64,000 bases of DNA. Origin: Geosiphon pyriformis uo1 (lineage: Eukaryota; Fungi; Glomeromycota). Every line of letters starts with the position of its first letter. The stretch's first letter is position 1. The translations under genes were made by a program, and so were the position numbers. Positions 2,478-59,230 of this stretch are shown piece by piece. The notes below the pieces were generated by a model. It ran no database searches. It saw nothing but the letters and a program-made list of their open reading frames with translations, and had not been told where the DNA came from. The stretch covers positions 1,912,576 through 1,976,575 of the forward strand of contig JAAOMT010000664.1 of assembly GCA_016748015.1 (NCBI GenBank), in the 5' to 3' direction.

Positions 2478-2806
2478 ATGTAATAGAAAAGAAATAAACA
2501 ATTCTGGTAAGCAAAAAAACCATAATAATATGGCAATAACACAAGATTGCAGACCATGATAATAAGATCGTCGATTATTCAGAATTGATCTTCACTTCAA
2601 ATGATTCTTATCTTGGCATAGTGTTTAACTGAGATTAGTGAACGTTTCAAGAATAAAAGATTTTAAGAGGTTGTTTCTTTTGATTTTAACAGTGAAACCA
2701 GCGATTATTTTGAATTTATATGGTGCATATAAATTGAATAAAAATCTCTTTAACAATGCATGTGCGTTTAAATATTTATATATAAGCAGACTGATATTTG
2801 TAAATC

Positions 2807-3533
2807 ATGGATTTCCCAGCCGAACTCTACCTGTCCCAAATCCAAAGGTGGCCTACAAGTGGACGCCACGTCCTAGCCCAATATGATAGAACTTCCATCC
2901 TCGTCTACCAAGCTTTCAAACCCTCGATTGCCCAATATGCTGTCGAAAATCAAAAATTCGGGGGCCCTGATTTTTCTTTGACCCGGATGACATGGATCAA
3001 AACAAATTTCACGTGGATGATGTATCGATCCGGATGGGCTACAAAAAAAAATCAAGAGCGAATTTTGGCCATTCGCCTGAGTAGATATTCCTTTGAAGAA
3101 ATTTTAAATAAGGCTGTGACAACGAGTTTTGGGCAGTCCCGGTTTTTCGGGACGAGGTTGGATTGGCAGATGGCTGGCGAGACGACAAATGTTCGGTTAC
3201 AGTGGGATCCGGATCATGAACTCAATGGAAATAATTTACAACGAAAAGCAATTCAATTGGGCATACGAGGTGATTTGGCAAAGTTATATGCCACTGAATG
3301 GATTTTGAGTATTAAGGATATCACAGATTTTGTGCAGGAACAGTATCAGTTGGTTCAGTCGGGTGATATTAATTTGGTAAAAACTCCTGTTGAAGGTAAA
3401 TTGCTAATTATTCCAACTTGTGTTAAAAATTATTTTTGCTAATATCACTTTATGATATCATACAGATTTGTACCCAGTTCCTGATCAATTGAAACCTCGT
3501 TTGGGACTTGGTATTGATGAGGAGGAACACTGA
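2807..3533 (+). CDS. DUF4291-family protein, 218 aa; exons 2807-3395 and 3466-3533
   Basis: Motifs AQYD..SILVYQAF, RMTWIKTNFTWMMYRSGWATKKNQERILA and VRLQWDPDH..KAIQLGI are characteristic of DUF4291. Intron 3396-3465 (GTAAAT..GCTAAT..TACAG) restores the C-terminus PVEDLYPVPDQLKPRLGLGIDEEEH*. CpGs are retained. Confidence 0.88.
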
Positions 3534-20094: not shown

Positions 20095-21439
<1,345 letters not shown>

Positions 21440-24400: not shown

Positions 24401-25889
24401 ATTATACAAAAAAAAATGATACAAAGTCTTATTAAGAAAATTATGTGACAAACAGGCTTTAAACTTAAAGTCTTTTTTAATTATAACATTCTACTTATAA
24501 TATACACTAAATGAGACAAAACTAAATTAAGTTTTATAACTGACTATGGATTACAAAATAGCTAATACCAAATAAGAAAACTGCTTATCTGTAATAATTT
24601 TATTAAGTATCATATTAACAAAAAATCAAACATTAAAATAAATCTTGGCCAGACTTGACTTAAACAACCCTTTGGTAAACAAAAAAATTCTCAGATATTT
24701 GTAAGTTTTACTCTTCTTGGCCATTAAAATTAGTAGACTACTAATACTCAAAAAAGCAATCTTGATACTCTAGTTGATTGGAATAGTTATCATTTTCTTA
24801 TTATTAATAGAAATATTATTGATTGAAAAAAATTTATTAATAATATTTAGAGCATACTGCATAAAAAATTGACAATCTCCAATCCAAATTGTATTGTTTA
24901 TAAATGTGTTAGCAGCAAAAAAAGATAACATCTTATTATTATTCTTTATTCTGTTTGTTTTAACCACAAACTTAGTATTAATACAGTATTTATACAAATA
25001 CTTATGTCTCTTAATCTTACATAAGAGTAAATTATAGAAAATTCTTTAAAGAAAAAATAAAAAAACTTCTTTCTGATTCAATTTATCATGCACTCTATAG
25101 TCATTTGAGAGACCAAAATCAGTTATTACCCTATTGATTCTGTTCTTATATATACTGCCAAAAAACTTAATAAACTGTTCATATATCTTAATTTATTACA
25201 AGCTGGCTTTTAAGTAGTGTTATCTAACTGAATTATAAGTTTTGCATATGTTTTGCAAGACCAACCAGATTTTTTTATTTTTTTTTAGAATATCCTTAAT
25301 CACTAATTTAACAACAAATATAGAGAACCAAGTAAAAGTATTTTTTAAAACCAAAAAATTATTGCCATAAAGAACACCAAACTTGTTACATGTTGTTACT
25401 CATAGGAATTAAGAATATCATAGTTAGAGAAATAGCTAATCAAAAATAGACATAGTAACAGAGAAATTCCAGAATTCTTCTGAAAAAATTGCAGGATTCC
25501 AGAATTCCAGAATTGCAAGATTCCAAGAATTTTATATAATACCAATTATGTATATATAGCAGTAGTATTAGAAGTGAGAAAAGTATTCAAAATTTGGTTC
25601 AGTTTTAATTTAGTATCCCCTTTTTTATCTATTAATTAACTTTTACTTCATGAATAGTTATTATTACCTGAAGTAAATTTATTAATAAATATTAAATAAA
25701 CATACTTATTATTATCTAATTTATGTTATTATTATTTAATTGAGAATTTGAATTATTTTTTTAGTTATTAACACTTTATGTTAATAACATTCAATACTTA
25801 ACTACATTAAAATAATAGTTCTTAATTATGACTATTAATAGAATATTAATTTTTTCTTTCTTTTATTTCTTTTTTTTTTTTTTTTTTTT

Positions 25890-25978
<89 letters not shown>

Positions 25979-26106
25979 TTGCTTCATTAATTTACTAACA
26001 AATTAAAGAGATTAAGCACTAAGTAATTAACATTAAAAGGACTGGTAAAAGACCTAGGAATAAGGGTAAACACTCAGAATTTGAAAATAGCTTACCAAAA
26101 AACCGG

Positions 26107-27048
26107 TGTTACCAATAAAATTTTAGCCATTAATTAGCATAAAATTACTCTTCTAATTTCTAATATTAATTAATATATATTATTATTATTTTAATTATTA
26201 CTTATTAATTAATCAAATTATCAAATATTACTATTCAATTAATAACTTGATTTGTATTATAGAAATTAAGATGATCAAATTACACAATATCCTAATTTAT
26301 TTAATAGTTAAAATTCGCCAAAATTGATAGAAATTGGTCGAAATAATCAATAGTTTATAAAAATAATTTGTAGTTTGCCAAAATATATTTTTAGTTTACT
26401 AAAATTATAGCAAAAAAAAAAGTGCAAGTTTAAAGACTAATACTATAACAAGTTATATATAAAAAAAACTTCTTTTTTTAAGAAAATATATCTTATCTTC
26501 TATTAGAACAAATTATTTTTTACATATTCTTACAAAATCAAATAAAATCAAATATTTGAAAACCAAATTTTTAAATTATTATATTTGAAATTCACAAAAA
26601 CCCAACTAACATTTTGAAATTGATTAGCTACCAATTTCAATAATCTGTTAGTGACTTTAGGCCTGAATAGAAAACGTTTCTCTTAACAGAATTCTATTTT
26701 TTTTATATTTTTTATATTTTATATTTTTATTATTATAATTATTAGAGTAGTCTACAGACAAGATTTTTGTAGAAAAGTTATCTTTTATAGCAAAGTAATT
26801 AAATATTTTAGTGAGCTTTCAAATAAGCAATTCCTAAAAAAGAGTTGATATTTACTACAATATAATTATACAAAGTAACTGATATAAAATTGGCCATTCC
26901 ACTTATAAGTCCAGCAATTCAAATTATAAGAGATAATTTGAAGATAAAATTCAGTTATTAGAGATCCAACTACTTCCAAAAAACATAAATTCATATTCAA
27001 TAGACATTAACAACATTCAAAAAAAAAGACCAAAAACCTCCAGTAACA
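26107..27048 (+). mobile_element. Solo LTR, family A (942 bp), inside the 5' LTR of Gypsy B; TSD CCGG/CTAA
   Basis: TGTTACC...GTAACA termini; homologous to 13787-14772. The empty site is visible in the 3' LTR (taccaaaaaaCCAGccaccaagc, 36211-36233). Confidence 0.92.
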
Positions 27049-27312
27049 CTAACTACCAAGCTGAGAAAAAAATTGATGGAAAAATTTTCTGGGAGACTAC
27101 AAACATCAAAACACACCAACTTAAAAATTGAAAAAGAAACTAGAAATATTACTACAGGATATTACTATTGAATTTCTGTCTATTATACAAAAAACTCAAC
27201 CAAAACTTTTAGATTACCAAAATCTTTAGAGATTACCAATATAATTTAGCTATTGAGCACCAAGTTATGGGTTTGTTATTTATTCCAACCATCCAAATAA
27301 TTATTTGTAATA

Positions 27313-27330
27313 TTTGGTGCTTTCTGTGAG
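27313..27330 (+). promoter_or_regulatory. Primer-binding site TT-TGGTGCTTTCTGTGAG, shared by all Gypsy copies
   Basis: TGG begins 2 nt after the LTR end. Near-identical sites at 38895-38912, 55116-55133 (minus) and 60105-60122. Complementary to a tRNA 3' end ..AGAAAGCACCA; tRNA identity not resolved. Confidence 0.8.
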
Positions 27331-27376
27331 ATATAATCTAACAGAAAATTAGTACTAGCAATAATCATTTAAAACA

Positions 27377-30300
27377 GTGGCAGAATTAAAAATAATAAGA
27401 ACAAATCACTTAAAATTTGCAAAATTTTTATTTCAACAATACCATCAACAATTAGAATTAAACAGCAATTATTGGCCAGTAGAATCAGTTTTCAATTGTT
27501 ATATTAATGACAGAATCACATACTTCTTAAAAAAACCAACTAATACTGAATTAGCAAGAGAAAATTTCTATACCAAATTAATTCAATACATCAACTTACT
27601 ATTAAATTACAACTTTGCTCTTACTATTACTGAAATCAACTAAAGAATTGAAAATTACACTCAACAAAGATTTTTCACCACCTATGCAGACAAAGGCAGA
27701 AGAAAACTACAAATATTAGCAAGAATACCAAGAAATATACAACCACTTACTTAGAAAAAACTAAAAGTAGTTTTACCCATTTATCTGTCTTATTATTACA
27801 TGTCTGGAAATACTATCAATATACCATTAGGAAATGTATTATTATCAGCAAAAACACTATCAGTAAGAATAACATTCCAAAGCCAAAAAGAAAAAGCTGA
27901 TTTATTGGGAACCTATGGTAATTTCTTTGAAGAATTTAAATTGCAATCACCAATGTTATTAGAATTTTGATTATTGCTATCTCAACCCAATTTTGAAGCC
28001 ACTAGTTTTTGAGAAATAACCAATTCAGAAAAGGAGAAAGATAAAGATCAAAAATTTAATTACCAAAATCTGATTCCAGAAAACCTGAAAATACAAACTC
28101 TAATTATTCCAATTCAGTAAAATCAGAACAATCCAAATCTTATTTTTATTGTTCTTTAAAACTCATCTTTAGTAATTATAATCAACTCACTATCAGTTGC
28201 ACCAATCACAGAACCACAACAACAGCCACAACTATCATTACTCCAACAACAACAACTTTAACAACTATAACTGATCATAGCACTAATAGTATATGCTTCT
28301 ATTGCCTAGTTAGAAAAGTTTACTGGTGAAGAAAACAATGTTCAAGTTTAATTCAATGATGTCACTAAAACAATTATTACTAATAATTGGGATGATGTCA
28401 AAGCCTTACAAATCATCTTATACTTCTTGCAAAATATTACCAATTTATAATATTAGAGTTTGATTAACAAACCTATTATCTTTGATGCATTTAAAACCAA
28501 ATTTTTGAAATATTTTAGCAATAACAATAGCATTAATTGCTTGGCAACAGCATTTACTATCATTAAACAAGGTGACACAGAAGCAGTCACTACTTATTTA
28601 AGATATTTCTATAAAAATTTGCACCAGATTCAAGCTATTGACATTAATTATTTCACAATGCCACAAATTTTGAATTAGTTTATCTATGGCCTGTACAGTA
28701 GCTTTTTACAATATGTACATCCATTACATTTACAAACACTTCAAGATACAGTCATGTATGCCAGAGATTTTGAATTGGTTGAATTAAAAGTCAATTATGC
28801 CCAAACTGTAAATCTAGTAATAAACAAATCATCTGACTTGAATTCTAAACTAAAGCAATTCAGTAATTCAATTAATTAGAAATTAGAAGAATACTTAGTT
28901 AATAATTAGACAATTTATTAATCTCCACAATATTATAAAAATTCAGAAAACTCCAATTATGTTCAATAGCAATCACATTTATTATTATCATTAAGTCAAC
29001 AATGACAACTAAAAATACATAATTGCTACCACTATAGTAAACAAAGCCATCTAAAAATAAATTATTACTTCAAAAAAAATAGTCAATAATCAAGAAATCA
29101 ATATTAAAATTCTGATTACAGATTTCAAATCTTAAACTATACCAGTAATCAATTATCTAAACAATACCAATATCAGCTGTATTACTCTTAAATAATACAG
29201 CCAATTTATCAGCCACCAATCTATTAGACTCCAACACTAGTAATTTATTAACTCTCTCAGCTCCAAATTAATTATTAGCCTCAACCAAATCAGAATCAAC
29301 CTCAGAACTTACCTCAAAATAGAAATCAAAGACTGAGAACTACCCAAATTCACCAAAACTAGAAATTAATAATGGTAATGCACTAACTAATTTTTAGTTT
29401 AGCAGTCCAGCAATCTGGATTATAACAAGTTAAATCAAAAACTAACTATACCCAAAACTTAAACACTCAACACTATTTAAGTTTCTTAGTATTTCCAAAA
29501 ATTACCACATCCAACTTATTAGAAACCAACCAAAAACAACTTATATCTACCAGCAATATTTTACCAGCTACTATTACAGAAAACAAATTGCTCACTGCAA
29601 TATTTTTCTTTAAGATTAAAAAACCAGTCCCTGCACTATTATTTAGTAGAACTGTGCTTGAATTAAAACTCATTACTGTTATGTATACAGATATTAAAGT
29701 CAATGGCCAACTGATCAAATTAATTTTGAATAGTAATTTAGCAGACAGTATTATTACATGACCACTTATAGACTAATTAGGTCACCAAATTGATTATATT
29801 GTCTGTGCCAGAATTATCATAGCTAATGGAGCCACCAAAACACTTATTGGAGAGATTGACAACTTTTTTTTAAAGTTAACAACATCATTGTATTCATTAA
29901 AGTATTGGTGATAGAAGTCATCTAGTACTAAGTTTTTATTAGTAATAACTGGCTATTCAAAACTAATGCTATACTTAACTAAAACACCCAGAAGCTATAG
30001 CTCAGCTAAAATGGTTAACATATTAAAGTACCAGCCATGTATGGCCACTTTAAACCAAGCAATACTATTCAAACTTCACTAATTGAATTCGAGAAAAAAA
30101 AACCTATCTGAGAAGCCTACCAAGTATTATAAACCAAGAAAAACCACAACAGTTTACTGTTAGTACTTATCTGGAAAGAAAAGAAAAAAGAAAAAAAACA
30201 AAAAAAAGAAAAACTCCTAAGCAATCATCTTTACATATACACTATACACTATTATCACTCAAAGCCAGTCAAACTATTATCAACTCAAACTAATTTGTGT

Positions 30301-33300
30301 CAATTGCAGTAAGAAATTTTCAACAATGGGTGCATATTGTGGTGATAATAAGAAATGGCCAATAGTGACTAAATACTACTGTCAATTATGTGGTCTTGAA
30401 TGTTTTGGACAACTCAAATAACAAAAAAAATGAGACAATAAATCTTGTTTTACATGTAGAATGATTCTTCCTGACAAAAAAATATGGAACAATATTTCTG
30501 AACAAGAAGGAACATATAACAAAATGTTTTAGTACATAATTCTGATCAACAATTGGATGTGAAAAAAGATTCCAATTGACAACACCTGGAAATGAGCACT
30601 AAGATATCTAAAAAACTACCCATATGATAAACATGAGATCTGGAAAATGACAAGTGCCAAAGTTGAAGGTACTATATTTAGTAAATTACTGAAAATAAAA
30701 AATAACTCATTCACACTCCCTAAACCCAAATATATTCTTATGTTTAATATTATTAATAACATTGAGGATAATTCAAAACAATTTTACAAGCATTACCAGA
30801 ACTTAACACCAACTAAAGAAAAACAAAAACAGAGGCTAAAATAATTAAATACAAGACTATGCAAACACTGCTTGATTTTTAACAATTTTGAATACTGTAA
30901 TAATTGTGATCTTATCTACAATCTACTACCACACATGATCTATGCAATTCTTAAAGAGAAAAAACCAATCAGCAAGTGCATAATAGAATTAAAGTCAAAA
31001 TTTAATTCTGATTCAGACTTTGATGATAATGACAACAATAGTTTCAACTCTGTTTACTACAGCAATAACAACAATGATTCAAACTTTGATTTAAAATCTG
31101 AGCAATATATCACACTTCCAGATCTATTTATAAAGCAGAAAATAAGATAGTTCAGCAATAATAATGAAAATATTATATCAGAATGTACACATAATACTGA
31201 TGCAAAATTTGATCTAAGATATTCAGAAAAATATACCATAATATTGGAGCCCAATACATGTACTTGTATTAATCTGAAAATAGTCTTGGAAATACTGGCA
31301 ACAACAATGGTTCAGTTAGCATTTAGATCTAGTTTAGCAAAAAAAGAGATTAATATCAGAAAAGAAATAATTAATACAGAATATATAAGAAATATCATCA
31401 CAATATTACAAAATAATTCAAAAAAACCATATATAATTAAACCAAATAAAAAGATAGCACAGACAATATTCCTATCTTTGGTAAAAATAGCTCAATTAGT
31501 GTCAATAAGAACAAAAAAAGAATTAGAGATCACAGTCAGAAGAAAAAATAAATTCAGATCTATAAATAAAATATATGTATCAGTCAATATGACAGAGAAA
31601 AAAACAATTAATAAGAGAAAAATTATCTCCACTCATTAATTAGTTTCTATTTCACTATAAAACCAGTACATATTAGTGATAGAAAAAAAATAAAGAATCA
31701 GTCTCAGATTTTTGAAGCAGAACCAACCATTTGTGAATCAAGAAAAATTGGAATCACAAATCTCTATATACTGGCCAAGAACTATAAGCACATCAAAATT
31801 TCTATCTATAATACAATAGGCAACATTATCAAAATACTAAATAAAACTACTATCAGATACTTAAACACTAAAGTTGAGAACCAACCACCAAACACCATTC
31901 TAGATTTTTCACAATTGTGTGGATATGTAAATATTATATTACAAATAATATATGAATGAAAAAAATATTATTTGCTCCAACCAAAACAATTGAACCAAAT
32001 AAACTTGGAAAACTTAGATTTACTTCAACATATACAGCTCAAAATACTACTCAACAACTTCATTGACATCTTTGCCAATAAAAATGAATTTGGCAGAACT
32101 GATATTATTTAATACCAAATCTAAATGGGAGATATAATGCCAATAAAACAATGAGCATACAGAGTACTACCAGCAAGCCATAAGATTATTTGACAAAAAA
32201 TCAACAGAATATTAGATAATAAGTTAATTTAATCATCAATAAATCTATAATTATTACTAATGGTACTAGTTTAAAAGAAAAATAGAAAAATCCACTTTTG
32301 CATAAATTATAGAAAACTTAATAGTGTTACTTGTAAAGACAATTATTCAACTCTACAAATTTAAGAGTTATTTGATGTATTTAGAAAAAAGAAATAGTTT
32401 TTAATATTGGATCTAAACAGTGGTTATTGACAAATAGTCATAAATCCAGCTGACAAAAAAAAACAGCATTTATCATTAGAAAAGGGAACTTTGAATTTGA
32501 TGTTATGCTTTTCAGTTTAATGAATACTCCAACCACTTTTTAATGGCTAATAGAAATTGTCTATATAAAATTACTATAAAAATCAATAGTAGTCTACTTG
32601 GATAACACTAATGTGTTTTCAAAAACATTTGATAATCATCTTTATTATTTTTAGCAAGTGTTTAAGAGACTAAAGAGAACTAAATTGAAATTGATCACAA
32701 CCAAATGCTTCTTTAGTAAAACAAAACTAAAATTTTTAGCATTAAAACAGATCCAGACAAGATTGAGATAGTCAAGAATTTTTCAGTACCAATCAATTTA
32801 ACAGAACTAAAAGCATTCTTGAAATTTGTTGAATACTATTGTTATTTTATCCAAAACTTTTCCAAATTGGCCCAACTACTTCATTAGCTTCAAGCCAAGA
32901 ATATTAAATATAAATAGACTAAAACTCAACAAAAAGCTTTTAACATCTTAAAAAAAAGCTTATTCAAGTCTCAGTACTAATTTATTCAAATTACAACAAG
33001 CCATTTATCATTACCACTGATGTATTAAGTTAAACATTAGAAGCCATATTGTCTTAAAAAGAACCAGATAGAAAAAAACATCTAGTAACATATGTCAGCC
33101 AAAGTTTAAACCTAGTTGAAAAAAATTATAGAATTCCAGTACTAGAATATTTAGCTATCTATTAGGCTGTTATGAAATAAAAAAAATATTTGAGTCAAAA
33201 GTTTGATGTGTACACTAATCACAAAAGATTAACATTAATCCAGAAGCAAAAATTTGCAAATGACCACCACACAAGATGGAAAATAAAATTATCACTATTT

Positions 33301-33376
33301 AATTATACAGTACATTATAAAAAGGGAAAAAAAAATTGAAAATGTTAATAGTTTATCATAAATAAAACAAATTTAA
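27377..33376 (+). pseudogene. Gypsy B gag-PR-Cys-rich domain-dUTPase-RT-RNase H polyprotein (~2000 codons), many stops
   Basis: Capsid LEKFTGEENN..NNWDD..IKQGDTEAVTTY; knuckle ~29025-29070; PR KLILNSNLADSII (=LDSGS); RT VVYLDNTNVFS; RNase H FIITTD..LEAILS..YVSQSL..ending IKQI* at 33374-76. Confidence 0.9.
31175..31560 (+). pseudogene. dUTPase domain within the Gypsy B polyprotein (also 42236-42625 + and 51115-51520 -)
   Basis: All five trimeric dUTPase motifs, in order, in G>A-decayed form: DAKFDL (AGFDL), RSSLAKK, EIINTEY (GIIDAGY), KIAQ, RRKNKFRS / RGIKRFRT (RGxxGFGS). Confidence 0.88.
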
Positions 33377-33396
33377 GAACATTTTAACCCAAAAAT

Positions 33397-34776
33397 ATAA
33401 CAAAAAATGAATACACAAAATATCAATAACTCCAACATTATATTAATACTCAATAGTTTAAGGAGAAACTATTTTAAAAAGAACAAAACCACATAAAACA
33501 ACAATCAAAATATTTTATTACTTATTAAAATATATTATACTGAAAGAACAGAAAATATTCAAATTAGTTACTTAGAGTCATTACAAAACCAGAGAAAGAA
33601 ACAATACTATTTAACATGCATTTCAATTCAACAGCAGGATATTTTCATAAAAAAACAACCATAAAAAGAACCAGAAAAAAATACTATTGGCCATCCATGT
33701 ATTCAGATATCATCTAATATGTTCAAATTTGTAATACTTGTCAAAAAAGAGAAGAAACAAGATTTAATGAACCACTAAAACTAATTAAAGTAAGACAACT
33801 ATTTAATTGAATTGAAATTGACTTAGTTAAACCATTAACAATAACTAGCAGAGACAATTAGTACATAGCAGTAGCTATGGACTATCTTACATAATAGCCA
33901 GAAGCAAAAGCAATCCAAAGAGCAAATATAGAATTCATAGCCAAATTTGTTCATCAAAATTTGATTTGTTAACACAAATGTTCAAAAGAATTATTATCAT
34001 ATTAAAGAACTTATTTTGTAAATAAAATATTAACAGAATTAAGTTAAAGATTTGGAATCAAATGACTATTATCATCACCATATTATTTACAAACAAATAG
34101 CTTAGTAGAAAGATTTAACAGAATATTGTATAAAGCAATAGCAAAAATCAGCCAAAAAAACCAGGATGAATAAAATTTGTTTATGCTATTACTATTTGCT
34201 TATTGGATAATAAAGCAAGATATTATACAAACAACATCATTTGAACTTGTTTATGATAGAACAGCAACATTACTAATTGAGATAAACATTAATATATATT
34301 TAACAAAACTAATAACAGAAGCTAACTTCCAAAGAACATTGCTAAGAAGAACATACAAATTAATAGAAATATTAAAAAACAAAAGACAAAAAGCAGCTGT
34401 TAATATTCAAAAATCATAAAAAAAACGACATAATAACTAATTACCAAATAAACCAGTTAAATTCAAGATTAAAGACAAAGTACTTTTACATTATACCAAA
34501 GCAAAAAAACAATAAAGTAGAAAATTTGATTCCAAATAAGATAGATCATTTTACATTAAAGAAATTCTAGGAAATAGAACTTATAAACTAAGATAGAACA
34601 ACAAAATCTTAGCTAAAGCAGTACATAGAAATTGACTAAAATCATACTACAATATAGCATTATTATCTACCAATAATATTTCACAACTGGAAGTACAAAG
34701 AATATTAATCAAACCAGATAAGATTCTATAAGATTTAGAACTAATTATTATCATTGAAGCAAACACATTGAACTGA
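33397..34776 (+). pseudogene. Gypsy B integrase, separate ORF
   Basis: Start ATA (ancestral ATG). HHCC relic FNMH..YYWPSMY..CNTCQK; core IDLV, AMDYLT, QTNSLVERFNRIL; GPF module; ends LELIIIIEANTLN*. No chromodomain. Confidence 0.88.
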
Positions 34777-34831
34777 TCTATCATAAAAGTATATAAAAAA
34801 CCAGCACATACAACAAAAACAACAAAAAAAG

Positions 34832-35487
34832 ATGGAAATCACTGACAACATCTACTTACTTATACAACAACTATTACAACTGATTCAACAACAGAAATTA
34901 AGTCTGAAAATTACCATCAATAAACACATAATACAATACAAAGACAAAGAGATACTGCAAAAAGACCAAGCCAAAGAACAATATTCCAGATATTATAAGT
35001 CTGAAAATACTGTAGATAAAATAATAAAAAAATAGAAACAACATTAAAAAATCCAAGAATATTAATACCAGAAAAAGAATTGATCTTAAAAAATTAGAAC
35101 TAATAGATACAACAAAATCCAAAGAACTTTTGTTATTATAAATTGGGACAACAGTTAAACATTGAAAACTTATATACTAACAAAACAAAAAGGAAATTTG
35201 ATTCAATTCAATTACAACAAATTAAACAACTTGTTGAAAAGAACAATTTATCTACATATGCAAAAGCCATTTACTGACTATGAATAGAATTTTAAGACAG
35301 ACTAAAAATATTATTACATTCAACAATAAATATTGTAATTATTAATCAATTGGAAAAATTAACCAACACTCAATTTGAAGAATTGCAGATGAAAATAACA
35401 GAAGCAATTTTGGAAAAAGAAGTTATAAAGTTAATCCAAAAAGGAAATTTAGAAAGTTTAAAAGATTTTAATAGAACTCAATATTAA
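34832..35487 (+). pseudogene. Gypsy B ORF3, ~215-aa protein of unknown function (homologs 57409-58048 + and ~46244-46908 -)
   Basis: MEITDNIYLLIQQLLQLIQQQKLSLKITIN..CYYKLGQQL..YAKAIY.L..INQLEKL..FNRTQY*; the stop abuts the PPT. The same blocks occur in the two other copies. Confidence 0.75.
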
Positions 35488-38016
35488 AAAGTAGAGAATA
35501 ATATTACTTATAAGAATTAAAAATATTATAGTTAGAGAAATAGCCAATTAGAAATAGGTATAATAACAGAGAAATTTCAGGATTCCTCTAAAAAAATTGT
35601 AAAATTTCAGAATTCCAGAATTGCAAGATTCTTGGTAAAAAATTACAGGATTCCAGAATTCCAGAATTTCAAAATTTCTCTAAAAAAATTTCAAAATTTC
35701 AGGAATTTTATATAACACTAACTATGTATATATAGCAATAGCATTAAAAATGAGAAAAATATTCAGAATTTGGTTTAGTTCTAGTTTAGTATTTCCTTTC
35801 TTATCTATTAATTAACCCTCATTTCATGGATAATTACTATTATCTAAAGTGAATTTATTAACAAATATCAAATAAACATATTTATTGTTATTCAATCTAT
35901 GTTATTATTGTTTGATTAAGAATCTGAATCACTTTTCCAGTTATTAACACTTTATGTTGATAACATTCAATACTTAACTACACTGAAACAATAGCTCTTG
36001 ATCATGGCTATTAATAGAATACTAATTTTTTCTTTTTTTTATTTCTTTTTTTTTATTTCTTTTTTTTTATTTCTTTTTTTTTATTTTATTTTTTTGTTGT
36101 TTTATTAATTTACTAACTGATTAAAGAGATTAAGCATTGAGTAATTGATATTAAAAGAACTGGTAAAAGACTCAGGAATAAGAGTAAACACTCGAAATTT
36201 GAGAATAGCTTACCAAAAAACCAGCCACCAAGCTAAGAAAAAAATTGACAGAAGAACCTTCTGGAAGGCTATAAACATTAAAACACATCAACTCAAGAAT
36301 TGGGGAAAAAATTAGAAACATTACCATAGGATATTATTATTGAATCTCTGTCCATTATACAAAGGATTCAACCAAAATTTTCAGATCACCAAAATCTTCA
36401 AAGATTACCAACATAATTCAGCTATTGAACATCAAGTTACAGATTTGTTATTTATTTTAACCACTCAAATAATTATTTGTAACAATATAAATGAAATTTA
36501 ATTAGAAAAAATCTTGAAAAAAATCTTCCTGGCTGTCTTAATTAAAGCAATAGGTTAAGTGTTTGTAAGAACTTCATCTTACTTATAAGGCTTAGAAATC
36601 ATTAAGACCCAAGCTTTTTTTTATAAAACAAGAATATTGTCAAAAAACAAATATGTATTTAGCAATTTAAGAAGACATCTTATCATATTATCAGCACTAT
36701 GCTTCCAAAGTTCATTAAAAATGCCAAACAAATTAGCAGTCTTGTTATCAGATAAATTATTAATTACTAAGAACAATTCTTTTATATTGATCTTCTTTAT
36801 TATTTCAGAAAAAGCATTATTATTTACATAACTCAATAATATATATTAACAGACTTAAAATTCAGACATTACCAAAAATATAGTTCATTCTTTTGTCTAA
36901 CTTTTCATAATCCTATTGACACTAAGCTTAACTTTTTTTGATTCCAAAACCAGCTTACTTTTAACAACCAAATAATCCAAAACCACTTTGTAAAAAGACT
37001 TATCCAAAATATTTCTTATTATATTTTCTTTATTAAAACAAAAACTTTCTATGTATTTTTTAATAGCTTTTCTAATAAATGTTTTCTCAGCCAACTTTAA
37101 TTCATAAAACTTAGACCTTCTGTATTTTTTTCAAACCAATAACAAATGCTTAAGAATATTCATTGACTTTTTTTTATTCCAAACTAATTTTATAATTTTA
37201 AAAGCCTCAATACTGTCCAAAGTTAACCATTTCTTAACAAAACAGTTGAATTTAAGCATATTATCTAAACTCAACTTCTTAATAATTTTGGCAATTAGCA
37301 ATTTTAAACCAAAAAACTTAGAAAAATGTCTGTTTCTCAAATATTAAAATACACTGAACCAATATTTAGAAAACGTTTTATTAGCCAAATTTACTACCAT
37401 CTTTCTTAACAATTCTCATATAGCATCTAAATTTGCATCAGCCCTCACTTCTAAAAATTTGTTCACTACTGCTAAAAACTTAACAGAGAAATATCTCTTA
37501 AAACATGTTTATTTAACACTATTTGCATTACTAATTTTAAACTTTCAACAATTCTTGTTAGTTTGCTTGCATATACTGTTCAAACAGACATTCAAAAAAT
37601 TACTTAAACTAATTAAGACTAAGACAACCTTGTAATTAATATTAAAAAGTCAGATATAATTTTAATTTCATAATCAGCAATTACAAATAACAAACTTTTA
37701 CTTACAAACACATAATCTATAATTTTTTTAACACCTCTTAAATTGTTTCAAGTAAGAGCTTTGACCAATAAATGTCTACCCAATAAGTTGATCAAACCTA
37801 AATCCAAACAAAACTTGAAACTTTGACTTTTTTTATCTATTTTTATTGAAGTTACTATTCAAAACCACAAAAATGCTAGAGTTAACTGTCTTAACAATAA
37901 AAAAATCGATTTTTATAGTCTAATCATATTTAATTTCAGCAAAAGCACCAGTATACAATCCTAAAATTATAATTATGAGTTTGTCTTTGAAAAAAAGCTG
38001 TATTAAAATAATATAA

Positions 38017-41000
38017 TATTACTTATAAAAAAAGTACAAGAAAGAAAAATAAAAAAAACAAATAAAAAAATAGACCAATAAGAGAATAATACTTAGCAAG
38101 TAAATACAATGTCAAAAAATTATGACATATTACTTAATAATATACATATTGTCGGTAAATTATGGCACATTGCTTAGCAATAAACACATTATCAGAAAAT
38201 CATGGCATATTGTTTAAAAAAATATGAGATTTTGTATAACAAGAATTATGTATATATAGCAAAAATATTAGAAGCAAAAAAAAACAGAATTAATACCAAC
38301 AATTAGTTAAAACTCATTAATAATTCAATACTTTTCTCTTTAAAAAGTAGTTTTCTACAACTTGAAATGAAATTAAATTATATATTAATAAAATATTAAT
38401 TATTATCTGAATCTATATTATCATTGTTTGATTAAGAGACATTAATTACTTTTAGTCTATCAATACTCTATGTTAATAAAATCCAATACTTAACTATACT
38501 GGACCAATAGTTCTTGATCACAGCTATTAATAAAATGCTAATTTTTTTTTATTTTTATTTTTTTATTTTGTTTTATTTTGTTGTTTACTAATTAATTAAA
38601 AAATTAAGTACTGAATATTTGCCATCAAGAATAGTCTGATAAAAGACTTAAGAATAAGAATAAAAATTTAAAAATAGCTTACCAGAAAAACACAACTGCT
38701 AGATTAAACTGGCCATTATGCTAAAAAAAAATTCATAAAAAAAACCATTAATTAAATCTCTGTTCATTATATAAAAGACTTAACCAAAATTTTCAGACTT
38801 CAAAATCTTCAAAAATTACCAATATTATTAACTATTGAGTACCAAGTTACAAATTTGTTATTTGTTTCAACATACCAAATAATTACTTATAATATTTGGT
38901 ACTTTCTGTGAGATATAATTTAACAAAAAACCAGTATCAACATTAATTAGAAAAATTGAAAGATATTTAGCTAATAATCAAGCAATTTATCAGTCTTTAC
39001 AATATTATAACAATCAAAAAAACTCCAATTATTTTCAAAATCAATCACATCTATTATCCTCATCAACCAATTAATTATAACAGCAAGAGATGTATATTTG
39101 CCACTATTGTGGTAAACAAAGACACTTAAAATTAGACTGCTATATAAGATTAAATAACCAATAATTGAGAAATTAATATTAAAACCCTAATTGCCAGTTT
39201 CAAACTTTAAATTACATCCAGAATTAGGAACCATATTAATCTTATTACACTTCAATAATACAACACTCAATATATTCACCTTTAGTATATCAAACTTTAG
39301 CACCAGTTATCTATTAGCTGTAGCCACAAATTATTTATCAACTCTAACCAATTCAAACACTGCTCCAAAACTTAATGCAAATATCAGCTGGCAACCAAAG
39401 ACCAAGAATTACTTACATATAATAAAATTGGAGATTAGCAATAGTAATGCACCAACTAATTTCCAGTTTATTAAACCAGTCATCAAATCATGCCAGTGGA
39501 GTTTGGAAAGTGGATACATTCAAAACCCAAATTCTTAAAACTATTTAAGTCTTCTAATTATCCCAGAAACTAACTTATTCAATAACTTGAAAAACCTAAA
39601 AACACTATTTACTAGCAACTATTACTAAAGACAAATTATTTACAGCCATTGTTATCAGAAATTTTTGGTCTTTTTTTTTGAATATTGTTACTGCTTGTTT
39701 GCTGTAAATTCATGTTTATTAGAAGTAATTGAACCTCCAATAACTGAATTTATCTTCAAATTATCTTCTATAATTTGAACTGCTAGACTTATAAATGGAA
39801 TAGCCAATTTCATATCAATAATTATATGTAGTTATTTTGTAGTAAAAGTCAACTCTTTTCCAGAAATTGTTTGTCTGAAAGCTTACTAAAATGTGTAATT
39901 ATTTTGCTGTGAAAGTCAACTCTTTTACAGAAATTTTGTTTATAAACTACTTTAATGATTATAATAAAAAAATAAAAAAAAATGTAAAAAATATAAAAGA
40001 AATAAAATTTTATTAAGAAAATCATTTTCTGGTTTAGACTTAAAGTCACTAATAAATTACTGAAATTGGTAGCTAATAAATTATTGAAATTGGTAGTTAA
40101 TAAATTTCAAAACATTAGTTAGGTTTCAGAGAATTATCAAGTATAATAATTAAAAATTGGGTTTTCAAGTATTTATTTTTATTGATTTGTAAAGATGTAT
40201 AAGAAATAAATACTTCTAATTAAATTATCTAAAGTAAGATAAGATAAATTTTTTCAAAGAGAAAAGCTTTTTTTTTATACAACTTGTTATAATACTAGTC
40301 TTTAAACTCAAACTTTTTTTTTTGCTATAATTTTGATAAACTAAATATATATTTTAGTAAACTACAAGTTATTTTAATAAACTATTAACTATTTTGGTAA
40401 ATTATTCATTATTTTGGCAAAATTCTACAAATTTCAGCAAATTTTTGAATGTTAAGTAGTTTAAAATATTGTGTAATTTGATCATTTTTATTTCTATAGT
40501 ACAAATTGAATTATTAATTAAATGATAATATTTGATAATTTTATTAAATAATAAGTAATAATTGAAACAATAATAATATATGCTAATTAATAATAGGAAT
40601 TATAAGAGTAATTTTATGCTAATTAATAGCTAAAATTCTATTGATAACACTATATTTCTTTTCAAAATAGAAAAATCAACAATGCCACTTTTATTTAGTA
40701 GAGTCATTCTCAACACTAAACCAATTACCACTATGTATATCAATGCTAAAATCAATGGCCAATCTATCAAGCTAATCTTTAATAGTGGTTTAGCAGACAG
40801 CATTATTACATAACAACTTATGGACCAATTAAGTTATTAAATTAATCATGTTGTTAATGCCAGAATTATTACTGCTAATAAAGCCACCAAGACTTTTATT
40901 GGCAAAATTGATGACTTTTTGTTTGAAGTTAATGGCATCATGACATTCATCAAAGTTCTTATAATAAAAACCATACAATACCAAGCTTTTATTATTAATT

Positions 41001-44000
41001 AGCTGTTTAAAACCAATGCTATGCTTAACTAAAATATCCAGGAGCTATAGCTAAGTTAAAATGGTCAACAAACTTAAATACTAGCTATCTACAAATACTT
41101 CAAAGCTTTTTTAAGAGAGCAATCATTGATTAAATTAGAGAAAGAAAAAAAAAAACCTATCTGAAAAGCCTATCAAGTTTTGTAAACTAAAAACAAGGAC
41201 AACAAATTACCATCAATACTCTCTTGGAATAATAATAATAATAATAATAATAAAAATAAAACAAAAGCCATTACAGCCACTAAAAAAATAACCAGTAGAT
41301 GGAATTAATCCTATTTTGTAGAGACAAAAAAAAACCACCTTATATTCTATTAAGATGTATTAATTATAAGAAGAAGCTTTTCTTTATAGAAGTCTAAATT
41401 TTGTTAGTTAAAAACTATTGGATATATACTTATTACTACTGCAAACTATAATATTAAAAATATTTTGGTTACTCTAAATAACAAGAAAAATAGAACAATA
41501 AATCATGTTTTACTTGTGAAAAAATGCTATTCAACAAAGAAATATGAAACAATATTTCTGGTCAAAAAAAAATATGTGACACATCATGTCAATATATGAT
41601 TTTTATTAGTAACTAGATGAACTGAAAAATGCTTTTTAATGCCACATAGAACTGAGCACTTTTATGTTTAAATGGTTATCCACATAATAAAAACAAAATT
41701 TGGTAAATGGCAAATGCCAAAGTTGAAAACACTTTGTTTAGAAAAATACTTATGATCAAAAACAACCCACCAAAATTTGTCAAAACTGTTTTTATTCTTA
41801 ATCCAAACATCTTTATTAACATCTTAAGTGATCCAAAACAATTTTACAAATACTACCAAGACTTAGCACCTATTAAAAAAGAGCAAAAGCAGTATTTAAA
41901 ACAATTAAATACTAGATTCTGTAAACATTGCCTAATTCCTAATGACTTTAAATATTGTGACAATTGTGACTTCATTTACAATCTACTACCATGTATGATC
42001 TATTCAATCTCCAAAAAAAAGAACCAATTAGCAAATATGCATCAAAATTGGACTTTAAATTAAATTGCAATTCAAACTCTGATAATAATAACAACAATAG
42101 TTCCAATTTTATTTACAATAGCAATGACAACAATAATAATTTAAACTTTAATTACAATTCCAAATAGTATATTGCACTTCTAGATTTGTCAATAAAGCAG
42201 AAATCTAAATGGTTCAATAATAACAATAAATATATTATGCCAGAATGCACACATAATACTAATACAAAGTTTGATCTTAGATATTCAAAAAAAACTGCTA
42301 TTAGATTAGAACTTTATTTATGAACCAGTATAAATCTGAAAATGACACTAAAAATTCTGGCAACAACAATGATTCAACTAGCTTTTAAATCTAGTTTAGT
42401 AAAAAAAGGAATTAATATCAGAAGAGAAATAATTAATATAAAATATGTAGAAAATATTATTATAATACTACAAAATAACTTAGAAAAAGAATACATAATT
42501 AAACCAAATAAAAAAATAGCACAGACAATATTCCTGCTTTTGGTTAAAATAGTTTAGTTAGTGTTAGTAGAAATAAGAAAAAAGTTAGGAATTACAACAA
42601 GAGGAATAAAAAGATTCAGAACAATAAATAGAATAGATATATCAGTTAATATGGCAGAAGAAAAAACAATTGATAAGAAAAAAATTATTTCCAATTATCA
42701 ATTAATCTTTATTCTATCATATAATTAGTATATAATAATTATAGAAAGAAAGATAAAAGAGCAACCCCAAATTTTTGAAGCTAAAACAAATATTTGTAAA
42801 TCAGAAAAAATTGTTATTACCAATCTCTACATACTAGCCAAGAACAATAAACACATTAAGATTTCAATATATAACACAATTAAAAATCTTATAAAAATAT
42901 TAAGTAGAATTATTATCAGATACTTAAGCATTGAAGTTAAAAACCAATTATCAACCACTATTCTAGACTTTCTACAACTTTATAGATATGTGAATATCAT
43001 ATTACAAATAATCTATAAATAAGAAAAGTATTATTTATTACAACCAAAACAATTGGAGCAAATGAACTTAGAAAATTTGGACCTACTTCAATGTATGTAA
43101 TTTAAAATACTACTCAACAACTTTACTAACATTTTTGTTAGTGAAAATGAATTTGGCAGAGCTGATATTATTCAATACCAGATTAAAATTGGAGATACAA
43201 TACTAATTAAACAAAGAGCATATAAAGTACTATCAGCCAGCCATAAGATTATCCAACAGGAAATTAATAAAATATTGAACAATGAGTTAATTCAATCATT
43301 AATAAGTTCATGTTTATTACCAATAGTACTTGTTCAAAAAAAGAATAAAAAGATCTGCTTTTGTATAGACTATTGAAAACTTAATAGTATTACTTATAAA
43401 GACAGTTATTTAACTTCATGAATTCAAAAATTATTCAATGTTTTCAGAGGAAAAAAATGGTTTTTAATATTAGACTTAGATAATAATTACTAACAAGTAG
43501 CCATGAATTCAACCAACAAAAAAAAGATGGCATTTACAATTAGAGAAAAAAATTTTGAATTTGATGTTATGTCTTTTGGCTTAACCAATACTTCAGCTAC
43601 CTTCTAATAGCTCATGGAAATTATATACACTGAATTACTATGGAAATCAGTAATAGTTTATTTGGATAACACCAATGTGTTCTCTAAAACATTTAATAAC
43701 CATTTCTATTATTTTCAACAAGTGTTTGAAAGATTAAGAAGAACTAGATTGAAATTGAATGCAACTAAATGCTTCTTTAACAAAACTGAATTCAAGTTTT
43801 TGGGACATGTTATAAGCAAAAATAACATTAAAACAGATCCAAACAAAATTGAAATAGTTAAAAACTTTTCAGTACCAACAAACTTAACAGAATTAAGAGC
43901 ATTTTTGGGATTTTCTAGATACTATTACCATTTTATTCAAAACTTCTCCAAATTGGCTCAACTGCTTTACCAGCTTCAAGCAAAAAATATTAAATATAAA

Positions 44001-45215
44001 TAGATTAAAACCCAACAAAAAGCTTTTGACATCTTAAAAAAAAAGCTTATTCAAGCTTTTGTATTAATTTACTTAGATTATAGCAAGCCATTTATTATTA
44101 CTACTAATACATTTAGTCAAGTATTAGGAGCTGTATTGTCACAAAAAAAAACAGATAAATAAGAACATCTAATAACATATGCCAATTGCAGTTTAAGTTT
44201 AGCCAAAAAAAACTATAAAACTCCAGTATTAGAACACTTAATTATTTATTGTGCTGTTATCAAAATAGAAAGAATACTTAAGTTAGAAATTTAATGTATA
44301 TACTAATTATAAAAAATTGACATCAATCCAAAAGCAAAAATTTGGAAACAATTATTATGCAAAATAAAAAATAAAATTATTATTATTTAATTATATCATA
44401 CATTATAAAAAATAAAATAAAATAAAAATGCCAATGGTTTGTCACAAATAAAACAAATTTAAAAACATTTTAATCCAAAAATATAACAAAAGATAAACAC
44501 ACAAAATATTAATAACTCCAACATTATATTAATACTTAACAGTTTAAAGAGAAACTATCTTAAAAAAAACAAAATTACATAAAACAACAATCAAAATATT
44601 TTATTACTTACCAAGATATACTATATCAGAAAAATAGAAAATACTCAGATCAGCCATTCAGAGTAATCACAGAACCAAAAAAAGAAACAATATTGTTTAA
44701 CATATATTCAGATCCAATAACAGAATATTTTCATAAAGAAACAACTATAAAAAAACTAAAAAAAGATACTATTGGCTATCTATGTATCCAAAAATAATCT
44801 AATTTGTTCAAAATTGTAATACTTGTTAGAAAAAAAAAGGAACAAGACCCAGTGAACCACTAAAACCAATCAAAGTAAGACAACTATTTAATTAAATTGG
44901 AATTGACTTAATTAGATTATTAACAATAACTAGCATAAGCGATTAATATATAGTAGTAGTTATAAACTATTTTACAAATAGCCAGAAGTAAAAGCAATTC
45001 AAAGAGCAGATACAGAATTTATAGCCAAATTTGTCTACCAAGATTTAATTTATTAACATAGATATTCAAAAAAATTATTATTAGATCAAAAAACTCATTT
45101 TGTAAACAAAACACTAACAGAATTAAGTTAAAGATTTGAAATTAAAAAATCATTATCATCATCATATCATCCACAAACAAATGATTTAGTCTAAAAATTC
45201 AACAGAACATTGTGT
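38017..45215 (+). mobile_element. Gypsy D-left: 5' LTR 38017-38894, PBS, gag with internal deletion, PR, Cys domain, dUTPase, RT, RH, integrase cut at NRTLC
   Basis: LTR TATTACTT..TATAATA followed by TTTGGTACTTTCTGTGAG. Jumps at ~38942 to the end of the capsid; knuckle CHYCGKQRHLKLDC; RT ORF 43614-44003 (VIVYLDNTNVFS..FLGHVIS). Confidence 0.9.
39650..40649 (-). mobile_element. Solo LTR, family A (1000 bp), antisense in Gypsy D; TSD CCAT/CTAT
   Basis: TGTTATC...GATAACA; reverse-complement homolog of 26107-27048. Removal restores DKLFTAIFLFKIE. Confidence 0.92.
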
Positions 45216-48200
45216 TGTTATAGATAAACTTAGAAATATATAGTAGTAATATTTGGTGCTCAAAATTTGGATTTCTAAGGAGCTTTTGAAGGTTTTTTGT
45301 TAGTAGACTTGTTTAATATGTCAGTATTATTAGTCTTTAAAAATCTTTTTGATTAATATGAATTTACCTGTAGAGTTTTTTGGTTATAACGCACAGAAAA
45401 ATAGTTTTGCAGTATTGTAATTTCGTGTATATAAGCTATCTTTTCTAAGTTAGTCAAGTGCAGTTACTAAAATTTGGTAATATTTTTTTACTCTGTTGAT
45501 AAGCTAATAAGATAATATTAATATTCAATCTTAGGAAGAACTTTTTTTTTTTACCAGATTATCACAAAGTCTATTTTCAGACAATTAATTTTTCTATGTT
45601 GCTGCTTCACAAAAGAAAACAAAATAAAAAATAAAAATAAAAATAAAGAAAAATAAAAGAAGAGAAATTAGTATTATTAATTGTCATAATCAAAAACAAT
45701 TGGTCTAAATTGTACTGATTTAAAACAGTTTTATGCTAAGAGCATCTGATTGGAAACAAAAGTAAAAACAAGATTAATTCAGCTAAAATATATAAGTATA
45801 GAAATTATATAGATGTGGATTTTGGTTTTTTTAATATTTTTTTTATTTTAGTAATATAAAATATAGAATATAGCAAGAAATATATAACAGATATAGGTAA
45901 AAGAAAGTTGATTTTTGTCTATTTGTTTGTCTTTTTATCTTTTATAATTACTATTTTTTATATATTTCTCTTAGTTTTATAAGACTACTTTTAATTGTTT
46001 CATTATTGTTAACTATTGCTTACTATTTCTGTTATTGCTTCATTTCTCTATATTATTACTAGTTATCTTAAGTTTGACTAGTTTTTTTGTATTATATTAC
46101 ATTTTTATATTTTGTATTGTGTTATTATGTATTATTCTGTATTCTTTTACATTATTCTGTATTATTTTATGTTATTATGTTTTAATTATGTTTCTTTATA
46201 ACTTGAATTGGTTTTTTTATTCGTATAACATTATTTCTCTCTTTTAAAATTGAGCTTTTGTAAAATTGTATGCATTTGTAAAACTTTTATTTTTCATATA
46301 ATGTTCAATTGTTGCTTTAATTATTGCTTTTTTTAAGTTATTGAATTTTGTATTCATTATTTGTTCTATATTGTTAATTGTAATGGTCTTTAAGAAACTG
46401 TTTAGCAATATAATTGGGCAGTATTTAAATACTATATATAATTAATATGTTGCTTTGTAGTATAATGTTAAGTTGTTTCTTCTTATGAATACTTTTATTT
46501 GTTTGAAAGCTTTTTTGTTAAATGTTTGTTAATTGAAGTCTTTATATAGTGTTTTTAATTTTATTTGTTTATCAATCTTATAGAACCAAGAAACTAGTAG
46601 AAGTTTTTTTTTCATACTCTGGAGTTTTTAGGTGTTCATTTTTCTGTTATTGGTTTTAATGCTAATCTGTTCAAAACTTTTTTTATTTCTTCAAGCTTGG
46701 CCTAATACATATATCTTTTTTTTTTCTTAATTGTTTATAAAAATGAAAACATTCAGTTCTAGTTGAATTCTTGCTTACACTTTTTTTGCTCTTGTCTTTG
46801 TATTATATCTCTTTTCTATTAATTGTGATTTTTATTTGAGTTGTGAATTGTTAAATTGCCTCAAATAGTTGTTTTGAGAGTTTTAGAATTTGATCTAAAA
46901 GATCTATGTTGAGAGTTCTATTATTTTTTTTGCTGTTTCAGCTGTTATATATACTTAAATTTTCCAATTAAATATTTATATGTTGATGTTTTAATGACAA
47001 TAATTGGTCTCAAATCTTGTGGTATATTTTCTGGTTTGATTAATGAAATCTGTGTTTTTAGTTGCAGTACAAATAACAATGTTTTTTGTTTTGTATAATA
47101 AATTTTCAACCAATTTTTATGTGCTACTTTTTTTAAAGTTTTGTTTTCCAATCTTAATTTGTAAGCTCTATTGTCTAAAACTTTGTGTATGTAAAATAGA
47201 CCATCTCACTTTAGGTTAAACTTTTTACTCTACTGTTTTTTAGCCTTTGTACAATATAATAGTATATGGTTTTCAATTTTGAATTCAATTGGTTGGTCAG
47301 GTAGACAATTATTATGTCTTTTTTTCTGTTGTTTTTAAGCTTTATTGATATTGTTAGCTATTGTTTTATGATTTTTTTCCAATATTTCTATAAGCTGATA
47401 TGTTTTTTAGTATAAAGTATTTTCAAAATTTTTCTTGGTAATTGTGTTTGTTGAAAAAAAAATATTTCTCATTTAATAGGTAGGATAGTTTTTCTTTTAT
47501 AAACTAGTTTAAATGGTGTAAACTAGATAGTATTTTGCTTTAATGTTTAATATACAAATAATACAAAAAGTATAAATAAGTCATATTTTTGTGTATTTTT
47601 GTAACTTATTTTTGCTAATGCTTTATACAATGTTCAGTTAAATTGTTTTACTAGTTTATTTGTTTGTGGGTGATAGAATAACAATAAAAGTTATTTTATT
47701 CTAAATTATTGGCTTAGTTTAGTTAGCATATTATTGACAAAATACATTTCTTAATTAAATAACAATTTTTTTAGACATTTATAGTGGCAAATTAGATCTT
47801 GGTATACAAACTCAGCTACTGTTTTAACATTAGCCACTTGGATTACTCTGGCTTTTGGCCACTTGATAAGATAATCTATAGCTATAGCTATGTAACAATT
47901 TCTTTTAGATATAATTAAAAAAAAACTAACCAAATTAATCTCTATTTTATCAAATGAATTTTTAATTAGAATAAGTCAAAATGGTTCTGTTGTTCTGGCT
48001 TCTTCTTTTTGTTGGCATAAGTTATAGTTGAGGACATATTCAAAGATGTTTTTATATATTATTGGCCAATAGTATAAATTTATGATTCTTTTTAAAGTAA
48101 CATCTTTATTAAAGTGTTTTGTAGTTGGGTTAAAATGCATACTATGCAAAACAGTTTTTTTTTCATTGTCTTTTATAACTCATTATGGAGTAATACAGTT

Positions 48201-58992: not shown

Positions 58993-59230
58993 ATATATAT
59001 CTGCTACTATTGTGATAAACAAAAACACATAAAAATAGATTATTATACAAGATTAAATAACCAATAATTGAAAAATCAATATCAAAATCCTAATTGCCAG
59101 TTCTAAACTTTGAATTACACTTAGGATCAAGAATCATATTAATCTTATTATACTCTAATAATACAACAACTAATATATTCATCTTCAGTATATCAAACTT
59201 CAACACTAGTTATCTATCAATTATAGTCAT
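58993..59230 (+). pseudogene. Gag zinc-knuckle fragment of a further Gypsy copy, the host of D-right and F
   Basis: ICYYCDKQKHIKID..; colinear with 39090-39325. Confidence 0.8.

Follow-up and report, generated by a model that had tools for sequence, protein, structure and literature searches.

The 64,000-nucleotide (nt) stretch of the Geosiphon pyriformis uo1 genome analysed here (contig JAAOMT010000664.1, positions 1,912,576 to 1,976,575 of the forward strand; hereafter the window) carries decayed copies of a Ty3/Gypsy-type long terminal repeat (LTR) retroelement, labelled B, D, D2, E and F. In these copies, and in apparently intact relatives from metagenomes, the integrase is a gene of its own: a first open reading frame (ORF1) carries gag, a protease (PR), a reverse transcriptase (RT) as well as RNase H (RH) and closes with a stop, the integrase follows, and a third frame (ORF3) stands behind it. 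We are nearly certain that this architecture is real. The initial annotation had put forward just such a lineage, with a stand-alone integrase and a third ORF, from the window copies; the intact relatives bear it out, and the elements are monophyletic in an integrase tree. On the standard view, LTR retroelements package integrase within Gag-Pol, and in canonical Ty3/Gypsy elements the pol polyprotein includes the enzyme as one of its domains (PMC2774666). What is new is the stand-alone-integrase Ty3/Gypsy architecture; a dUTPase between PR and RT, which the window copies also carry, was already known. The most testable novelty lies in the relatives and not in the window's dead copies.

Integrase as a separate gene in intact relatives

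A comparison of B's integrase with proteins of 251-800 amino acids (aa) gave 28 matches, 21 of them integrases of 405-432 aa, and an alignment of the integrase matches served to retrieve metagenome stretches, the best 80 of 388 confirmed ones being the relatives discussed throughout. The integrase N terminus is held by 65 of these 80 loci; all 65 have an ATG at model position 1 and an in-frame stop 0-53 codons upstream of it. The relatives' ORF1 is open for 1,400-1,850 codons and ends before the integrase, and the junction between RNase H and integrase is fused in none of the 38 loci that hold the RNase H end (four of them with broken tails). Relative to ORF1, the integrase lies in frame 0, 1 or 2 at 9, 13 and 16 of these junctions, and the variability of both frame and gap rules out a programmed frameshift or readthrough into integrase. 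At the protein level, integrase is part of the gag-pol protein in 0 of 26 lineage members versus 92 of the 94 other top RT matches; note that the 26 are metagenome proteins of at least 65% identity among the best 120 RT matches, some of them possibly truncated by contig ends. Two points weigh against these counts. The integrase profile derives from gene-called, Met-starting proteins, so that the profile itself to some extent favours an ATG at position 1, though not the stop upstream of it, and the loci are not independent, there being near-copies among the relatives.

Ty3 is the best solved match both of the relatives' RT-RH (297 bits, next 208) and of their integrase (155 bits, next 98), and the two enzymes are nearer to Ty3 than to those of retroviruses or caulimoviruses. 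LTRs with TG...CA ends, a primer-binding site (PBS), a polypurine tract (PPT) and a short target duplication are present, in the order PR-RT-RH-integrase; at three insertions the 4-bp flanks agree once C/T and G/A decay is allowed for. In an integrase tree of 63 rows, 17 of them outgroup (LG+G4, quick search), the 46 split rows occupy one branch with a support of 100 in the SH-like approximate likelihood ratio test (SH-aLRT), and the integrases of B and E group with L070, L076, L078 and L080 (SH-aLRT 98). An RT tree of 58 rows, with 31 outgroups taken from 94 and most pseudoscorpion rows omitted, puts 27 split rows together at 91 along with one long-branch intruder, and constraining the split rows to one clade is not rejected (approximately unbiased test, p-AU 0.55). 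In these trees the window rows are long-branched and of odd composition, and the outgroups contain no named reference clades. On sequence grounds, the split-integrase elements are a distinct Ty3/Gypsy lineage that forms one clade.

Three other assignments were considered and rejected. Canonical pol organisation fails on an integrase that lies outside the polyprotein. A chromovirus would be expected to show a chromodomain at the C terminus of its integrase, and none was found by Pfam on the integrase of L010 or in the precomputed domains of the 28 integrase matches. Ginger- and Polinton-type DNA transposons carry a Gypsy-like integrase without RT and are not bounded by LTRs; such an origin is ruled out by the position of the integrase behind RT-RH inside LTR elements.

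Three ORFs turned out not to be universal. L038, L040, L051, L053 and L066, all of one subclade, have no ORF of at least 100 aa that begins within 900 nt of the integrase, although 1.1-3.5 kb of their sequence lies downstream of it, and this subclade appears to lack ORF3. Evidence that the relatives have fungal hosts is thin and includes a fragment from Funneliformis geosporum; in Rhizophagus irregularis, a gene model joins integrase to an ORF3-family domain. IMG/VR yielded no integrase relatives (47 pattern matches, 0 confirmed). Lineage elements are also binned in bacterial and archaeal metagenome-assembled genomes (MAGs; L133, L134, P0003, P0175), where they are named as integrases of those organisms, likely through contamination. 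The lineage explains this kind of mis-annotation, both orphan 'bacterial' or 'archaeal' integrase genes in MAGs and fused gene models in fungal genomes.

Two subclade peculiarities may be added. In seven of seven loci of one subclade (L038:5331, L039:869, L040:2497, L042:2881, L043:2744, L045:5038, L048:1514) the TGA that closes gag-PR runs on into CTA, and RT lies beyond it in the same frame, which looks like what we take to be a stop-readthrough signal. L032 has an additional ORF of 116 codons, placed after the PBS and before gag, and a different ORF3, with weak helix-turn-helix matches (L032:1524-1886, L032:2588-2935).

The spacer before integrase and routes to a separate enzyme

Spacers between ORF1 and integrase were compared at 35 loci (L006, L030, L042 and L074 left out as near-copies or for a broken tail, L072 added, L008 and L013 counted from their downstream tail ORF). 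ORF1 and integrase overlap or abut at just six, which rules out universal stop-start coupling in this sample; 23 spacers measure 44-199 nt and six 192-506 nt. The integrase start has a purine at -3 in 33 of the 35 loci and G at +4 in 30. ATG is depleted in the 23 short-gap spacers, with 5 occurrences against a dinucleotide-shuffle mean of 21.4 and none of 500 shuffles as low.

A motif of about 40 nt precedes the integrase in many relatives. A pattern search finds it at 33 loci, on the sense strand only and 1-33 nt upstream of the integrase ATG, the distance being 4 nt in 19 of the 33. Across 28 loci it forms a two-helix structure with an 11-nt conserved bulge, 97.9% of cells being paired; two-sided change is seen at 8 of 12 pairs, as against at most 3 in slid controls, and RNAalifold returns a nearly identical fold. 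A covariance model gives 35 strong and three weak matches on the 80 loci and recognises the held-out L134 at 54.9 bits, though not L133. The element is present in 33 of the 60 loci that have at least 60 nt upstream of integrase; note that kinship among loci inflates all of these counts. Viral matches to the RNA pattern (52, at most 19.6 bits) are chance. As a separate observation, a second conserved leader with weak predicted folding stands before the integrase ATG in two relatives close to the window's subclade, at L076:833-871 and L080:1949-1994.

We infer a route of expression and packaging from these features, and give its core, integrase from full-length RNA and ORF3 from a subgenomic one, about an even chance. 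Gag-PR-RT-RH would be translated from full-length genomic RNA up to the ORF1 stop, and integrase from its own AUG on that RNA, by reinitiation or internal initiation, with the cis-element in the spacer, presumably used by ribosomes, helping it to initiate. ORF3 would come from a short subgenomic 3' mRNA begun at an internal TATA promoter. Subclades would solve the coupling differently, through the structured element, stop-start overlap, the second conserved leader or, in the window copies, a short AU-rich leader. Because Gag and RT share one frame, uncoupling integrase would keep it scarcer than Gag, and the enzyme would reach the particle by binding RNA or Gag in cis. A diverse, apparently intact clade with a separate integrase needs some such other route to dosage and particle loading. 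Three soil metatranscriptomes from the study behind L023 gave no match, which says nothing either way about expression.

Translational coupling of a downstream ORF on one RNA has precedents in the termination upstream ribosomal binding site (TURBS) of caliciviruses, in SART1 and in LINE-1; in the present lineage stop and start overlap at six of 35 loci, and most others have LINE-1-sized spacers (PMC5972666). However, TURBS precedes the stop and contains the core UGGGA, whereas the element lies between stop and AUG and has none. A TURBS-type signal was rejected for these reasons, the element itself having been examined and not the regions upstream of the overlap loci.

Several observations count against the full-length-RNA route. 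The six long-gap spacers are not depleted in ATG (33 versus 30.3 expected), something that scanning from the ORF1 stop cannot account for, and the depletion in the short spacers would be just as compatible with their being a subgenomic mRNA's leader. A loose TATA pattern is slightly enriched before integrase as well, at 10 of 55 loci, against 4.0 expected and 11 on the antisense strand. By the covariance model the element is missing in 27 of the 60 relatives and in the window, it was not found in the window's four nearest relatives (L070, L076, L078, L080), and its history needs eight gains or losses on the integrase tree. The element is therefore not essential.

The alternative that fares best, and which we still think rather unlikely, is that a capped subgenomic mRNA of its own encodes integrase, produced through an internal promoter or leader splicing, with the element tuning translation. 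A strict TATA pattern occurs before integrase at one of 55 loci, so no conserved TATA supports an internal promoter, but ORF3 apparently uses a subgenomic route, and the strong start context, the AUG-free short spacers and the long AUG-rich ones would all be accounted for. Splicing would find two invariant AGs inside the element behind a U-rich tract and a precedent in foamy viruses, whose Pol comes from spliced RNA (PMC7828637); the spacer of L072, however, contains no AG, which rules out a universal splice acceptor, and the stop-start overlaps at six of 35 loci suggest coupling.

A binding site for new integrase, ORF3 or Gag, acting in packaging or repression while translation is structure-free, seems to us improbable. 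Separately made enzymes need a packaging route, and foamy-virus Pol uses RNA signals (PMC7828637). The element adjoins the AUG and has been lost repeatedly; its tight distance to the AUG and its invariant unpaired bases, however, fit a ribosome-facing role equally well.

Still less probable is that the element is an undescribed small self-cleaving ribozyme, which would cut a fraction of the genomic RNA and so set free an uncapped mRNA for integrase. At E up to 5, Rfam offers no match at the element (seven loci scanned, two chance matches elsewhere), the hammerhead core is absent, and cleavage would destroy genomes required for reverse transcription. The resemblance is to type I hammerheads of fungal RNA viruses, likewise small structured RNAs in an intergenic spacer before an AUG: the fusarivirus intergenic hammerhead, which the element resembles in size, in position and in having an invariant unpaired core, cuts 7 nt upstream of the ORF2 start to give a subgenomic RNA (PMC13725137), self-cleavage of the present element being putative. 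That decay or faulty assembly produced the apparent split, from an ancestor with continuous pol, has next to nothing in its favour beyond the stops and frameshifts that fill the window copies, some common to three of them, and is already refuted for the relatives, whose open ORF1 stops before integrase at 38 of 38 junctions and in many has 200-400 additional residues after RNase H.

A broader picture may be ventured tentatively, as a possibility that falls short of probable: a widespread arbuscular mycorrhizal fungal Gypsy clade with a virus-like polycistronic programme, in which a minimal ribosome-entry signal of about 40 nt, or a new self-cleaving ribozyme, would yield free integrase and a separately transcribed helical ORF3, its fold unmatched, would act as accessory factor. 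The covarying 40-nt element offers a small, testable handle on cap-independent or reinitiating translation in fungi.

ORF3, cargo domains and known systems

The last ~120 residues of the window ORF3 are conserved in one frame across both subfamilies (B, D2, E), and Pfam gives no match for it above the cut-off. Among the relatives, the ORF3 family comprises 527 clusters at 50% identity; its proteins of 130-200 aa, shorter than the window ORF3, are modelled as compact and all-helical, with a predicted local distance difference test (pLDDT) score of 95. Pfam has no match for ten of ten of them, Foldseek at E 0.001 returns nothing for the fold from PDB or BFVD, and VIA-align reaches a best Z of 4.9 among 48,161 chains with no usable Atlas match, which is no proof of a new fold. 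Only its position and pattern suggest that the window ORF3 is a homologue of this family: it scores at best 2.8 bits against the relatives' profile, nothing significant against a larger profile, and a probability of 2.4% (E 0.02) in hhalign. The family is a candidate accessory protein.

Within 150 nt upstream of ORF3, 18 of the 24 loci show a TATA-like box, compared with a mean of 2.8 in shuffles and 8 on the antisense strand; it stands mostly at 41-62 nt and, in 11 of the 18, in non-coding spacer. The window copies have it at 42 nt (B), about 46 nt (D2) and about 55-58 nt (E), and the same type of box occurs in the LTRs. ORF3 thus likely has its own promoter, keeping in mind that seven of the 18 boxes fall wholly or partly within the coding sequence of integrase, in which the pattern can arise from Tyr-Lys codons, a point that speaks against it.

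The initial annotation had treated the two cargo domains, dUTPase and a Cys-rich domain, as a mark of the lineage. This does not hold. Published elements of fungi, rotifers and planarians already have a dUTPase between PR and RT (PMC2864245, PMC6431247), and neither domain was found in the 80 relatives, many of which end short of that region. Because of that absence, the dUTPase-Cys cargo is, on this comparison, local to the window copies; the dUTPase would likely limit uracil in cDNA. The AlphaFold model of the Cys domain is unusable (pLDDT 51). In L060, the slot of the window's dUTPase between PR and RT is taken by a NUDIX hydrolase domain (L060:452-805), a putative second nucleotide-sanitising cargo. 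Many relatives have, in place of PR-RT cargo, a Cys/His-rich tail after RNase H: 200-400 residues with conserved Cys/His motifs (L010:4565-5821, L005, L011, L021, L025, L058, L061, L074), for which Pfam gives no match.

Set against known systems, the lineage resembles yeast Ty3 and other Ty3/Gypsy elements in its LTRs, PBS, PPT and domain order, and differs from Ty3 in having integrase outside the polyprotein and, in most subclades, gag and RT in one frame. Its ORF3 is small and was not matched to env, the envelope glycoprotein gene that forms the third ORF of errantiviruses. Gypsy elements known to bear a dUTPase (PosPlaTy3-5 from Postia placenta, others from Phanerochaete and Tuber, Burro from planarians) carry the domain between PR and RT as the window copies do, but the excerpted descriptions of them contain no separate integrase (PMC2864245, PMC6431247); the window's Cys domain has no match. 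Foamy viruses likewise make their integrase-containing protein apart from Gag and need an own packaging route for it; there, however, Pol is set apart in its entirety and a spliced mRNA encodes it, whereas here integrase alone is separate and RT is fused to Gag (PMC7828637). No description of the split-integrase layout was found in the full-text literature, a search whose coverage did not extend to Repbase Reports, GyDB, REXdb, subscription papers or supplements.

The copies in the window

The window is AT-rich eukaryotic DNA crowded with degenerate retroelements, from a genome of which LTR sequence makes up 41.2% in a published survey (PMC11952901). All 37 matches of B's Cys-dUTPase region among longer proteins are G. 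pyriformis gene models (31-73% identity). Every copy is dead, with numerous stops and frameshifts and no open reading kept; in B the frame changes about seven times and stops are many. Most differences between copies are C/T and G/A, and CpG observed/expected in B is 0.01. At 12 positions a stop is common to at least two copies, and at all 12 the query protein has Q, R, W or E. Since they have these identities, and some fall on conserved RT residues, the common stops are read as decay hot spots.

The layout in the window copies is LTR-PBS-[gag-PR-Cys-dUTPase-RT-RH]-stop-integrase-ORF3-PPT-LTR (Table 1). In B, Pfam finds Retrotrans_gag, dUTPase, RVT_1, RT_RNaseH and Integrase_H2C2 in that order; the protease is placed by homology in B and, in F, appears only beneath the Pfam cut-off. 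That gag to RNase H form a single ORF of about 2000 codons had been claimed, and the claim stands in part: no copy is open, and B keeps frame across gag-PR and Cys-dUTPase, D across dUTPase-RT and RT-RH, E across PR-Cys and dUTPase-RT, and F across gag-PR. Because every junction is in frame somewhere and the common stops fall on Q, R, W or E positions, a single ORF1 is well supported. Other parts of the initial annotation fared well. The stop after RNase H is conserved (TAA in B, D and E, with integrase in a different frame), the two cargo domains lie between PR and RT in the order given, F matches through the Cys domain, which is present in B, D, E and F, and the ORF3 stop of B directly precedes the PPT. 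The two subfamilies were likewise recovered: the LTRs of B, D and F are 66-76% alike, those of E share merely a patch of 70-100 nt with them, and the PBS is common. Copy D had been described as lying in two pieces; D and D2 do exist, and the split is not clean, about 575 nt of integrase being duplicated either side of E (44642-45215 and 56116-56693) at 79.6% identity, a value near the 81.7% between the LTRs of E. At the joint, the 5' LTR of E is truncated, its first ~11 nt gone.

No window copy has an intact, in-frame integrase start codon, and Met positions are often Ile. In E the homologue of the start codon is ATA, 10 nt past the stop; B and D have two start candidates, an in-frame ATA in register with the ATG of intact L080 (33397 in B) and, one base out of frame, a nearby ATG (33407 in B). 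The flanks of B, ATGT and ATAT, differ by a single G/A. Its 5' LTR is broken up by a poly(T) expansion and by a solo LTR that is 74-78% identical to the one within D and to another at 13779-14773.

Table 1. Parts of element B and the other lineage copies, in window coordinates
Feature	Position	Strand	Remarks
Element B	25394-36484	+	begins TGTTAC, ends GTAACA
5' LTR of B	25394..27312	+	76-88% identity to 3' LTR, in three blocks; TGTTAC start
Solo LTR of another family, within B 5' LTR	26107..27048	.	TG...CA ends, flanks CCGG/CTAA
PBS-like sequence	27313..27330	+	common to B, D, E, F; similar in intact L005, L032
Decayed ORF1	27377..33376	+	N-terminal extension, gag, zinc knuckle, protease, Cys domain, dUTPase, RT, RNase H
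Cys-rich domain	30284..30988	+	~230 aa, several CxxC pairs; no Pfam match
dUTPase domain	31187..31531	+	PF00692, E 2.6e-11; present in D and E too
ORF1 stop of B (TAA)	33374-33376	+	
Decayed stand-alone integrase ORF	33397..34774	+	alternative end 34845
TATA-like box	34790..34797	+	42 nt upstream of ORF3 ATG; same position in D2, E, intact relatives
ORF3	34832..35487	+	about 218 codons with a single frameshift; last ~120 aa conserved across B/D2/E
PPT	35488..35499	+	adjoins ORF3 stop; likewise in intact L005, L061, L072
3' LTR of B	35502..36484	+	
Copy D	38013..45215	+	LTR, incomplete gag, then PR, Cys, dUTPase, RT-RH and the 5' portion of integrase
Solo LTR within D	39650-40649		
Copy E, second subfamily	45216..56117	-	LTRs 45216-46230 and 55134-56117
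B-family solo LTR inside E RT	49148-50090		
Copy D2	56116..59001	+	integrase, ORF3, 3' LTR
Copy F, least decayed	59631..64000	+	LTR end, PBS, gag, PR, Cys domain up to window edge

The 64-kb window contains no tRNA gene. Its other occupants include a less decayed retroelement of non-LTR type with RT and RNase H (10921-18395, minus strand), interrupted by the solo LTR at 13779-14773, and a host gene with introns at 19990-21300 (plus strand), the translation of which resembles what we take to be a dolichol-phosphate mannosyltransferase. An open DUF4291 gene lies at 2804-3442 on the plus strand (Pfam E 7.9e-67).

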